Notes under the pieces: generated by a model | Told to the model about the DNA's origin: nothing | The model's input: only the letters and a program-made list of their open reading frames with translations | Database searches by the model: none | Assembly: GCA_964556805.1 (NCBI GenBank) | Contig: CAZKXF010000001.1 | Span: 1 to 24,353 of the forward strand | Origin: an uncultured Candidatus Saccharibacteria bacterium | GTDB lineage: Bacteria > Patescibacteriota > Minisyncoccia > Phycocordibacterales > UBA918 | Length of the DNA: 24,353 nt | Direction: 5' to 3' | In this document: positions 16,651 through 21,100 of the stretch, one piece after another | How the letters are laid out: the number at the start of each line of letters is the position of its first letter | Numbering within the stretch: the stretch's first letter is position 1 | Made by a program: the position numbers and the translations under genes

Positions 16651-17901
16651 TTACAATCGCTCAGCCACTTCTTTGGTAAGTTTCTCTGCAAGGATTTCTA
16701 CCGAGAGCTGCGTCGAGCTACCATCTCGCGCCTCGAGCGTTACACTGCCTTCAGCAACTTCCTTGTCGCCGATGACGAGGAAGTAGGGAAGCTTGTCCTT
16801 CTTGGCGTTGCGGATCTTCTTGCCGAGCGACTCGTTGCTAGCGTCGAGCTCGGTGCGGATGTGCGCCGCTCTGAGCTTCGCTTCTACATCCTGTGCGTAG
16901 CTCAGATGTTTTTCCGATACCGGTAGTACCTTCACGTGTACCGGCGAAAGCCAGACGGGGAATGCACCGTTATAGTGCTCGATGAGGAATGCCATGACCC
17001 GCTCGATGGCACCGATCGAGGAGCGGTGTACGACGAATGCGCGTTTCTTAGAACCGTCTTCGCTCACGTAGGTGAGGTCAAATCGTTCCGGCATGCAGAA
17101 ATCGTACTGGACGGTAAAGGCGGTATCTTCCTTGCCGTTAACGTTCTTCATCTGGACATCGATTTTCGGCCCGTAGAATGCTGCTTCGTCCTTCGCCTCC
17201 TCAAAGGGGGATCCGCGGGATACGAGGTGCTTGCGGAGCAGGTCTTCCGCTTTTTCCCATGCCGCATCATTCGTGTAGTACTTCTCTGTATTTGTCCGAT
17301 CGCCAAGCGAGAGACGGAAACGGTAGTGTTCACCGAGTTTCAGCCCCAGTACGCCTGCCACGTACTCGATAAGGTCGAGGGCCGTGCCTACCTCGGCCAC
17401 CGCCTGCTCTTCGGACGCACACACGATGTGGGCGTCCGAGAGGCAGAAGGAGCGGACTCGCTGGAGACCCATGAGCTCGCCAGACTGCTCGTATCGGTAG
17501 AGTTTGGCGATCTCGGCAATACGCATCGGCAGCTCGCGGTAGCTGCGCGGCCGCGATAGAAAGAGTTAGAAGTGGTGCGGACAGGTCATTGGGCGCAACA
17601 TGAATTTTTCCTCGTCAATCTCTATCTGCGCGTACATCGAATCCTTGTAGTGCGGATAGTGGCCCGACTTGACGTAGAGATCGAGCTTAGCGATATCCGG
17701 CGTGCACACATGGAGGTACCCGCGCTTAATCTCTTCATCGATGATGAAACGCTCAAGTTCGCGCCGAATGGTTGCTCCTTTGGGCAGGAAGAGGGGCAGG
17801 CCTTTACCCACGGTATCCGAGAAGGTGAAGAGCTCGAGTTCGCGGCCGAGTCGCTTGTGGTCTCGCTCTTTGAGGTTTTCGTCAGGCACGTTGGTATTCA
17901 T
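16651..17901 (-). CDS. thrS: Threonine--tRNA ligase lacking N-terminal TGS/editing domains; frame interrupted by one TAA at 17566-17568
   Basis: Two same-frame ORFs join as RPMTCPHHF*LFLSRPRSYRELPMRIAE. Motifs RDHKRLG, YRYEQSGEL, RVRSF...DAH, FYGPKID, VHRSSIGAIER and a C-terminal anticodon-binding domain. Whether it is intact in vivo is unresolved. Confidence 0.93.
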
Positions 17902-17920
17902 GGGGTGATGTGGTGATGGT

Positions 17921-18099
17921 AAATAAAAAACGTCCGAGCAAAAATTCAATCTGCATTGAATTTTTGCTCGGACGATCTTTCGACCGCGGTTCCACCGAGC
18001 TTCCGCGCATACATATGTGCGCGACGCTTGTGCAGAGGTTGGGTGTGCGACACGCTCTCGTCAGAGCCCCCGGGTGGTAGCCGAGGCGATCCCTCCTGT
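17921..18099 (-). ncRNA. T-box riboswitch leader (transcriptional attenuator) of thrS
   Basis: Minus strand: antiterminator GCUCGG-[UGGAACC bulge]-GCGGUC-GAAA-GAUCGU-CCGAGC (18000-17966) overlaps a 20-bp terminator hairpin (17974-17931) followed by UUUUUUAUUU; Stem III-like hairpin CGCGCA..UGCGCG just upstream. Confidence 0.88.
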
Positions 18100-18105
18100 A
18101 GGTCT

Positions 18106-18133
18106 ATCGTACCGGGTAACCGTGTGTTGTCAA
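18106..18133 (-). promoter_or_regulatory. Promoter of the T-box-thrS transcript
   Basis: Minus strand TTGACA(18133-18128)-N16-TACGAT(18111-18106), just downstream of the dnaE stop. Confidence 0.65.
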
Positions 18134-18147
18134 ACCCACTCCGTTTC

Positions 18148-21100
18148 TTATAGCAGCGATTTCACCGCCTCGGCAACAATCGACGGCTGGCCGTTGCGGA
18201 AGGAGAGCCTGCCTTTGACGGCAATGCAGCTCTGGGGCACGAGGATGTCATGCTTCTGTTTGTAGAGGTCGGTAAAGACCACCATCTCAATCGAGTGCTG
18301 CCAGTCGGCGAGGCGGATAAACGCCATTTTATCTCCTTTTTTCGTGAGAATCTCCTTAACCTCCTCGATGAGCCCCGAGGTTTTCACCGGAATGCCTTCG
18401 CGCTCTTCGGTGATGATCACGGAAAGCGGAGCATACTTTTTCATTGCCTCCCGGCAGCGGTCGAGCGGATGGCCGGAGACGAAGATACCGAGCAGCTCTT
18501 TTTCCCACAGGAGCTTCTGCTCGGGCGAAGCAGGTGCTGCCGGGGCGAGTACCAGGTCTGCCTCAGTGTGTGCAGAGAGCGTTGCGAAGAGCGAATCGTG
18601 GCCCGAAACAAGCGAGGCAGCGTGTTCCTTGCTGTACTCAAGGAGCTTGTCGATGTTGGCGAGCATAGCGCCGCGCTCGGCGAAGCGGTCGAGAGCGCCG
18701 GCCATGATGAGCGCTTCAAGCGATTTCTTGTTGAGGTTGCGATTCTGCACACGCCGAAGAAAGTCCGCAAGCGACGCGTACGGCCCGTTCGCTTTACGCT
18801 CCTCGATAATTGCCTCCGTGATGCCGGCGCCGAAGTTTTTAATCGTCGTCAACCCGAAGCGGATCTCGCGCTTCTGCGCATCTGGGTGTGGTACCACCGA
18901 AAAGTCGGCGAAGCTCTCGTTGATATCCGGCGGCAGTACGTCGATCCCCATGCGCGTGCATTCGTGAATGATTTCTGAAATCTTTTCAATGTCGCCGGAG
19001 TCTGCGGTGAGAACGGCAGACATGTAGGCAACAGGAAAGTTTGCCTTCATGTAGGCTGTCTGGTAGGCGACGCGGCCGTAGCTTGCGGCGTGCGCCTTGT
19101 TGAACCCGTAGGCAGCAAACGGCTCAATGAGCTTCCAGAGCTTTTCGGCGACGGTGCGTGAGAGCTTCCCGTACTCCACAAAGCCGTTGAGCAGCTTCTC
19201 GCGCTCGGCCTCCATCACCTTTGGAATCTGTTTGCCCATGGCCTTGCGGAGCATGTCTGCCTCGAGCCAGGAGTAGCCGGCGAGCTCGCGGGCGATCATG
19301 AGCACGTCGTCCTGGTAGGTCACCACGCCGTAGGAGCGGTCGAGGATTTTCTTGAGACGCGGGTCGATGTAGGTGATACGAGCCGGATTGTGCTTGCGCT
19401 CGATGTACTGCGGAATCGATTCCATGGGCCCTGGGCGGTAGAGGGCGACCATGGCGTTGATGTCGTGGATAGAGGAGGGCTGGAGGTCTTTGAGAAAGCG
19501 GGTCATACCTGAACCGTTCAATTGAAAGAGCCCCATGGTTTCGCCGCGCGCAAGAATTTCAAAGGTCTTCTCATCGTCGAGCGGAACGTTCTCGATGTCG
19601 ATCTCGATGCCGTGAATCTTGCGCACGCGCTTGACCGCATCGGCAAGGATAGAGAGGTTCTTGATGCCGAGGAAATCGAACTTCAGGAGCCCCACGCCGT
19701 CTTCGCCCACCGCGTGCATGTCGTACTGCGTAATCATTTTGCCGCCGTCGCCTTTTGCTTTTGGGTCCGGTTGCAGGGGTACAAAGTTCACCAGCGGTGC
19801 CGGCGCAATCACAACGCCCGCGGCGTGCACGCCGACGTGCCGCACGCGCCCCTCTATTTTCTTGGCAAGGTCGATGACTTCTCGCGTCTCCGGGTCTTTC
19901 TTGTAGAGCTCCTTGAGCTCTGGCTCGATTTCCATTGCACGCTCGATGGTCATGGGAAAGCCCTGCGAGCCCATGGGGATGAGCTTGGCGATTCGGTCGC
20001 CGGTGGCGTACGGGTAATTGAGCGCGCGAGCCACGTCGCGTACCACGGCGCGCGCGAGCATTTTTCCGAACGTGCCGATCTGCGCCACCTTGTCTTCGCC
20101 GTACTTCTGCTTGGCGTACTCGATGATCTCGTCGCGCCGGTTGTCGGCATAGTCCATATCGATATCCGGTGCTGACGGCCGCTCGGGATTGAGGAAGCGC
20201 TCAAAGGGAAGCTTGTACTCGATCGGGTTTACGTTCGTGATGCCAAGTACGTAGGTGGTGAGAGAACCCGCGACTGAGCCGCGGATGGTGGTGAGAATCT
20301 TCCGCTCTCTCGCTTCGCGTAAGAGGTCGCCCACCACGAGGAAGTACTTTGCGTACCCTTTCATCTTGATGATGTCGAGTTCGTAGGCAAGGCGCTCCTT
20401 GATCACCGCGTCCTCAGGGTCAAGCCCGCGCCATCGTATGCCCGCGTAGGCGAGGTGCGCGAGCTCCTCGTCGGGCTCGCGCCCGCTCTCGATCCGATAG
20501 TCGGGAAAGTACCAGGTGCCAATCTCGATTTCGGCTGTACACTGCTCTGCTATTTTTTGCGTGTTCTCGAGCGCTTCGGGACTGTCCTTGAAGTACGCTG
20601 CTGCCTGTTCTTGCGAAATGAAGGAGAAGTCTTCTTCGCGCTCGTCAAAATCGCTCGTGGTCTCTACCGTGCCGCCGGTCTGGATCTTTACCATGGTTTC
20701 CCGCGCGAGCCGGTCGTCGGGCGTAATGTAGTAGACGTCGTGTGCGGCAACGAGCGGCGTTGCGGTATCGGCGGCGAGCATTCGAATTTTTTCTTGGAGC
20801 TCCATGTGGCCGGGAATCTCGGGATGGTGCGAGATCTCGAGGTAGCAGTCTGCGCCGAAGATGCTCTTGTACCAGGAGAGGAGTTCGTGGGCACGCGACC
20901 GGTCGCCGGCCTTAAGGGCTTGTACCGGTTCTCCGGCAAAGGAGGGAATGATGCAGAGCAGATTTTCTCTGTGCTCTTCTATGAGGGCGCGATCGAGCCG
21001 CGGGCGGTAGTAGAAACCGTGGACGTACGATTCGGTAACGAGCGTAATGAGTACCTTGTAGCCGGCGGTGTTCTTTGCAAGCAGTACGACGCGGGCGCGC

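Follow-up and report, generated by a model that had tools for sequence, protein, structure and literature searches.

The 24,353-nt stretch of DNA analyzed here (referred to as the window), from a Patescibacteria bacterium with a tiny genome, contains a leader between two minus-strand genes, dnaE (21363-18148) and thrS (16651-17901); the leader lies on the same strand, and thrS is the gene that it would regulate. This thrS is of a short form that codes for the catalytic and anticodon-binding domains only and lacks the N-terminal editing domain. A promoter scan returned a single site in front of the leader (10/12 matches versus 0.2 expected in shuffles), a σ70-type promoter at 18106-18133 on the minus strand that is composed of the −35 box TTGACA (18133-18128), a 16-nt spacer, and the −10 box TACGAT (18111-18106). 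Transcription is predicted to start near A18099, 50 nt after the end of dnaE and 99 nt upstream of the antiterminator described below, in agreement with an earlier note made from the letters of this DNA, which had put about 100 nt between a start at ∼18099 and the antiterminator. The promoter is shared by relatives of the leader: a TTGACA-like box, a spacer of 16 to 18 nt, and a TAnnnT box lie directly upstream of 106/117 related leaders, and in 103/117 the −10 box ends 7 to 11 nt ahead of the first base of the outermost helix, P1 (7 nt in the window). This conserved position indicates that the RNA begins at P1, without a canonical Stem I upstream, and speaks against a true start further upstream that would leave room for such a stem. 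The relatives keep the same leader behind differing upstream genes.

The 3′ part of the leader (all coordinates on the minus strand) begins with a Stem III hairpin at 18003-18024, supported by the predicted fold and by compensatory changes in all six of its pairs. It is followed by the antiterminator (17966-18000), which consists of helix A1 (GCUCGG/CCGAGC), a bulge formed by the 7-nt T-box sequence UGGAACC (17994-17988), helix A2, and a GAAA loop; in the alignment of 27 leaders introduced below, helices A1 and A2 covary or are invariant. The intrinsic terminator (17921-17974) has a 20-bp stem (17974-17931) followed by the U-run UUUUUUAUUU, which ends 20 nt upstream of the thrS ATG, and its 5′ arm (17974-17955) overlaps with the antiterminator, whose 3′ half (17974-17966) it reuses. 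With a predicted −31.4 kcal/mol (z = −8.7), the terminator is much stronger than the antiterminator (−15.4 kcal/mol), as is also the case in known transcriptional T-boxes (TBDB preprint). The earlier note had taken the output to be a transcription terminator; the 20-bp stem and its U-run agree with this, as opposed to a Shine-Dalgarno sequestrator.

The conserved promoter and the linker in front of Stem III are separated by no more than 66 nt, which form the predicted decoding domain, a four-way junction of the helices P1, P2, P3, and P4 in which a long Stem I is absent. When 18099-18033 is folded alone, both the minimum free energy (MFE) structure and the centroid give exactly this junction. 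Given that the folding energy of the domain is no better than that of shuffled sequence (z = −0.6), support for the fold was drawn from the comparison of relatives. The junction is closed by P1, whose 5′ strand CAG(G)AGG (18092-18098) pairs with the 3′ strand CCUCUG (18033-18038) in the MFE structure, with two possible registers for the outer pairs; the 3′ strand is further supported by covariation. The junction strand J1/2 (GAUCG, 18087-18091; GAUUG in nearly all relatives) leads into P2 (18068-18086), a hairpin with the 6-bp stem CCUCGG/CCGGGG and the 7-nt loop CUACCAC (18080-18074). This loop contains the threonine codon ACC at 18078-18076, followed by the purine A18075, and P2 is therefore referred to as the specifier hairpin. 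Two small hairpins, seen in the fold and in relatives, come next without any linker: P3 (GCUCU-GACG-AGAGC, 18054-18067) directly after P2 and P4 (GUGU-CGC-ACAC, 18043-18053) directly after P3. The junction strand J4/1 (CCAA, 18039-18042; CUAA in most relatives), which is presumably joined to J1/2 by non-canonical pairing, then returns to P1, and the 8-nt single-stranded linker CACAAGCG (18025-18032), which contains a conserved AAG(Y)G, connects the domain to Stem III. The parts named in the earlier note were all recovered on the minus strand, namely, the hairpin at 18086-18068 with ACC and a following purine in its loop, the two small hairpins (18067-18054 and 18053-18043), and Stem III (18024-18003).

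A BLAST comparison with 60 relatives placed a T-box together with a terminator in some 27 genomes that belong to the same family. These leaders share one upstream plan, which runs from CAGAGAUUG through a 6-bp hairpin with the loop CUACCAA and one or two variable hairpins to CCUAAUCUG, the AAG(Y)G linker, Stem III, and GAAGCUCGGUGGAACCGCG. When 27 leaders of the family were aligned with MAFFT, 93% of the cells paired, and compensatory changes were seen in 16 of the 26 pairs, including 5/6 pairs of P2, 3/4 of P1, and, as mentioned, 6/6 of Stem III. None of 500 shuffles of this alignment reached any of the five measures used, and sliding the 3′ partners cut pairing to 30 to 40%. The covariation that the earlier note had proposed to look for among aligned thrS leaders is thus found in P1, P2, Stem III, and the antiterminator. 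For P1, it concerns alignment columns 1/85 and 5-7/82-84 (CG/UA, AU/GC), which shows that the outer helix is real and compatible with the specifier hairpin. The earlier note had offered this CAG-GAGG/CCUCUG helix as an alternative fold; the helix itself stands, but it coexists with the hairpin, as P1, instead of replacing it.

Several other pairings of these strands were considered and rejected. The base of the domain was not called a K-turn, since, with the covarying P1 pairs in place, there is no 3-nt bulge ahead of the G-A. Changes in the leaders L003, L004, L014, and L025 contradict a second register of P1, made up of CA/UG and GAUUG/UAAUC and an AG bulge. Pairing of the linker AAG(Y) with a strand of A1 is unsupported, with mixed counts in the alignment as read by eye. 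The full-length MFE structure also pairs J1/2 with the 5′ strand of A2; this is not supported, given that J1/2 stays constant while A2 varies.

Some relatives depart from the common plan. In one genus of the family, the 5′ domain is of another, shorter kind (L026:1443-1540 and L027:1481-1582, minus strand), in which ACC stands within GUAACCAAG, directly after a 5-bp helix and not in the CUACCAA hairpin; the score of the Rfam model RF00230 on L026 is 39.6 bits. The distance from the T-box terminator to the start codon is 200 to 370 nt in many relatives, and in L003, L006, L010, L013, and L021 a common sequence beginning AAATGAGCAAACGA is found between the terminator and thrS. In a genome of the same order (L169:1501-1571), the spacer between dnaE and thrS retains, after a promoter-like site, no more than Stem III and the antiterminator; it lacks a decoding domain and a clear terminator and may represent a decayed T-box.

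Beyond the family, we ran an exact-pattern scan over one genome per species (185,579 species), using AGAGATTG, a gap, CTAATCTG, a gap, and GGTGGNACC as the pattern and leaving the hairpin and its loop free. This yielded 115 stretches, nearly all of them in Patescibacteria metagenome-assembled genomes (MAGs), with labels that comprise Patescibacteria, Parcubacteria, Paceibacterota, and Kaiser-, Nomura-, Campbell-, Adler-, Vogel-, and Taylorbacteria. Where the open reading frame was readable, the gene downstream of the Patescibacteria matches was almost always thrS, either in a long form or in the short form seen in the window. The 118 distinct leaders with the same build are likewise almost all from Patescibacteria and nearly all located upstream of thrS. 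As judged from these sequences, the putative minimal thrS T-box design is widespread in Paceibacteria-type Patescibacteria. Three scan matches in Lagierella (Firmicutes) lie within longer, more canonical thrS T-boxes and were treated as coincidental; the thrS T-box of Lagierella massiliensis (L080:2033-2191, minus strand) is 159 nt long and scores 64.7 bits with RF00230, for which the cut-off is 93. A covariance model (R1), applied to 150 genomes sampled evenly from the class, found only 5 genomes, under filters so strict that this number is a poor guide to absence.

Positions 3 to 5 of the P2 loop read ACC in 116 of the 118 distinct leaders and ACG in the other 2, both of which are threonine codons. 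Position 2 is mostly U, and position 6, directly after the triplet, is a purine (A or G) in the listed loops. The stem around this loop is highly variable, with 92 distinct P2 stems among the 118 leaders and at least three Watson-Crick types at every pair. The earlier note had singled out conservation of ACC as a point on which its reading depended, and the counts above speak in its favor. Between P2 and CUAA, the sequence varies and the length ranges from 14 to 46 nt, and this stretch is more structured than shuffles (mean z = −1.95). The base at which the stretch begins is paired in 91/118 leaders and the one at which it ends in 82/118, suggesting that P2, P3, and P4 follow each other with flush ends.

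The R1 model also picked up a second leader, upstream of the gene for glycyl-tRNA synthetase (GlyRS) in another Paceibacteria family. It is present in eight genomes of that family (L173 to L179 and L181; e.g., L173:1562-1710, minus strand) and consists of an outer helix and a 7-bp hairpin with the 6-nt apical loop N-U-GGC-N, after which come another hairpin, Stem III, an antiterminator with UGGA, and a terminator. The GGC triplet is found in 8/8 of these leaders. Which codon the apical loop holds thus depends on the regulated synthetase, ACC at thrS and GGC at the GlyRS gene, and it is this dependence that defines a Specifier.

At the other end of the tRNA, the T-box bulge matches the tRNA-Thr genes of the group. 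All tRNA-Thr genes examined in relatives (anticodons UGU, GGU, and CGU) have the discriminator U73, which pairs with the A of UGGA, and UGGA is present in 114/118 leaders. One genome with an ACG specifier has tRNA-Thr(CGU), in addition to GGU and UGU. The only tRNA-Thr found in the 75%-complete assembly that contains the window has the anticodon UGU and the 3′ end GGC-U-CCA, again with U73, and no gene for tRNA-Thr(GGU) was found in it. In an incomplete assembly, this missing isoacceptor is a gap and does not contradict the ACC specifier.

From the comparison of these sequences, the leader is very probably a T-box that senses tRNA-Thr through a minimal decoding domain and attenuates the transcription of thrS. 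The earlier note had described it as a T-box with an ultra-short Stem I and ACC in an apical loop, a description now backed by codon conservation across 118 leaders and by covariation. In the proposed mechanism, transcription would start near 18099, and the first 66 nt would fold into the four-way junction, such that the anticodon-loop-like loop of P2 (C-U-ACC-A-C) offers its ACC to the anticodon GGU of tRNA-Thr. If this tRNA is uncharged, its 3′ end U73-C-C-A would pair with UGGA in the antiterminator bulge, and the tRNA-held antiterminator (18000-17966) would let RNA polymerase read into thrS. With charged tRNA, or with none, the stronger 20-bp terminator (17974-17931 plus the U-run) would form and transcription would stop. 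Both tRNA binding and the response to charging are what we infer from this architecture, in which P3, P4, and the conserved junction strands would help to hold the anticodon arm of the tRNA. Counted against the attenuator reading are the shuffle-like folding energy, the missing GGU tRNA, the in-frame TAA in thrS and the same-genus genomes without the leader, which are both discussed next, and a published rule that rapid capture of tRNA by transcriptional T-boxes generally depends on the platform of a long Stem I (PMC7583486).

The thrS gene of the window has an in-frame TAA at 17568-17566 (minus strand), at a conserved Gln position of a conserved motif (MTCPHHF*LF). Read depth at the locus is ∼3-5x, and independent contigs miss the TAA site; contigs of one DNA run match 17300-17496, 17806-17977, and 18038-18300 without differences. 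Given the low read depth and the absence of an independent contig over the site, the stop is possibly an error, so that thrS may be either broken or misread in this genome. The minimal T-box leader is absent from the four genomes of the same genus. Same-genus genomes (L188 to L190) have a long-form thrS without a T-box at the same dnaE-linked place, which is only 45-46% identical to the thrS of the window while their dnaE is 80-82% identical. Together with the absence of the leader, this difference in identity makes the cassette look like an in-place replacement, and the pattern suggests that the T-box and the short thrS were acquired laterally from another Paceibacteria lineage. Both the stop codon at a conserved motif position and the divergence of thrS from its same-genus counterparts would also be expected if the leader belonged to the same class of elements but were decaying or idle here, as part of a recently arrived thrS cassette that carries a nonsense codon and is not under selection. 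We consider this unlikely: all parts of the leader are intact and pair well, the 557-kb assembly, which is 75% complete, yielded no second thrS, and the stop, at this depth and with no independent contig at its site, is possibly an error.

A different kind of control at the level of RNA is exemplified by the thrS operator of E. coli, through which the gene is autoregulated by ThrRS. By analogy, ThrRS or another protein could bind the P2 hairpin and autoregulate the gene with no involvement of tRNA, and the hairpin does resemble an anticodon stem-loop in its 6-bp stem, its 7-nt loop, its U at position 2, and its purine at position 6. However, this loop holds a threonine codon (ACC or ACG) and not a threonine anticodon (GGU, CGU, or UGU), and the glycine sister leaders carry GGC, likewise a codon. 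Since the leader also has a full T-box bulge that is complementary to the tRNA 3′ end and discriminator, we regard such a protein operator as highly improbable.

An ordinary class I T-box, with its long Stem I further upstream, in or after dnaE, on read-through RNA and with a short hairpin that is no specifier, is the least credible reading and can practically be dismissed, because even though dnaE ends close enough (50 nt before the proposed start) for read-through transcripts to be possible, RF00230 has no match in the window at E values up to 10, a strong promoter with a conserved position in 103/117 relatives separates dnaE from P1, the threonine codon of the hairpin loop is conserved (ACC in 116 and ACG in 2 of 118), and relatives have the same leader after different upstream genes.

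Returning to the attenuator, we compared its build with the T-box classes described to date. RF00230 gave no match in the window, at the gathering cut-off or with E values up to 10, or in the whole assembly; an Rfam scan with E values up to 10 returned only chance miRNA-like matches on the terminator hairpin. Relatives of the leader score 21 to 40 bits with RF00230, against a cut-off of 93. These results, and the mere 66 nt available, agree with the earlier note, in which no canonical long Stem I platform (AG bulge, distal T-loop) had been seen. The T-box catalogue TBDB was built on RF00230 plus a model of actinobacterial ileS T-boxes (TBDB methods). Being invisible to RF00230, the family has therefore most likely been missed by such catalogues. 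A search of the accessible literature for T-boxes in CPR/Patescibacteria, and for a terminal-loop threonine specifier joined to a terminator, returned no description. The suggestion in the earlier note of an unusual, possibly undescribed class is consistent with this search, but the design is not unique to the window, as it is widespread.

Four classes of T-boxes have been distinguished (PMC10482949). Class I, which is transcriptional, combines a long Stem I with an elbow platform, an internal Specifier Loop, and Stem II; Gly-specific T-boxes that are otherwise like class I but lack Stem II make up class II; in class III, which mostly acts on translation and depends on Stem II, Stem I is short and presents the Specifier in an apical loop of 5 to 6 nt; and in class IV the length of Stem I is intermediate (PMC10482949). 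With class I (RF00230; e.g., tyrS and thrS of B. subtilis), the leader shares the T-box sequence, the antiterminator-terminator switch, Stem III, a purine after the Specifier, and an aminoacyl-tRNA synthetase gene as target. Unlike class I, it is devoid of a long Stem I with its K-turn, of an internal Specifier Loop, and of an AG bulge and distal loop, and neither the S-turn of Stem II nor the IIA/B pseudoknot is recognizable in it. With the class II glyQS T-box of B. subtilis, it has in common that it is transcriptional and shows no recognizable Stem II domain, whereas the long Stem I with elbow platform and the internal Specifier Loop of glyQS are both absent here.

In its decoding domain, the leader resembles the translational class III ileS T-boxes of the Actinobacteria Nocardia farcinica and Mycobacterium (PMC10482949), which also have a short Stem I with an apical-loop Specifier and no elbow-binding platform, as well as a 3′ half made up of Stem III and a UGGN bulge sensor. 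In these T-boxes, Stems I, II, and IIA/B abut with flush ends, the linkers between the three helices having zero length, and the place of the pseudoknot can be taken by a plain hairpin (PMC10482949); P2, P3, and P4 are arranged in the same way. Based on this shared topology, P3 and P4 may be seen as shrunken counterparts of Stem II and IIA/B. The two designs differ in several respects. The output is an intrinsic terminator here and a sequestered ribosome site in ileS; the amino acid is Thr here (Gly in the sister family) and Ile there; and the specifier loop is 7 nt here and 5 to 6 nt there. Moreover, P3 is a tiny hairpin of variable length without a recognizable S-turn, and P4 is a plain hairpin in which we saw no pseudoknot motif, in contrast to the pseudoknot of ileS. 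Finally, the hairpins of our leader are enclosed by an extra helix, P1, with the conserved junction strands GAUUG and CUAA, which together would lock the geometry of P2 to P4. Truncated Stem I forms are reported to barely bind tRNA without Stem II (PMC7583486).

On balance, we lean toward the view that these leaders constitute a further T-box class of Patescibacteria, which would combine terminator control with the absence of both an elbow-binding Stem I platform and a canonical Stem II. In this class, the codon would be presented in a 7-nt anticodon-loop-like loop for a loop-loop contact with the tRNA, the junction strands together with P3 and P4 would stabilize the codon-anticodon helix, and there would be at least Thr and Gly versions.

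A decoding domain of ∼66 nt joined to a terminator would put to the test the rule that transcriptional T-boxes cannot do without the platform of a long Stem I if they are to catch the tRNA ahead of the arrival of the polymerase at the terminator, as well as the rule that forms with a short Stem I regulate translation and depend on a complete Stem II (PMC7583486, PMC10482949). It would also be the smallest known natural tRNA-sensing module and, as such, useful for structural work and for engineered switches. For the organisms themselves, it would show that RNA-based control of at least thrS has been retained in the ultra-small genomes of Patescibacteria.
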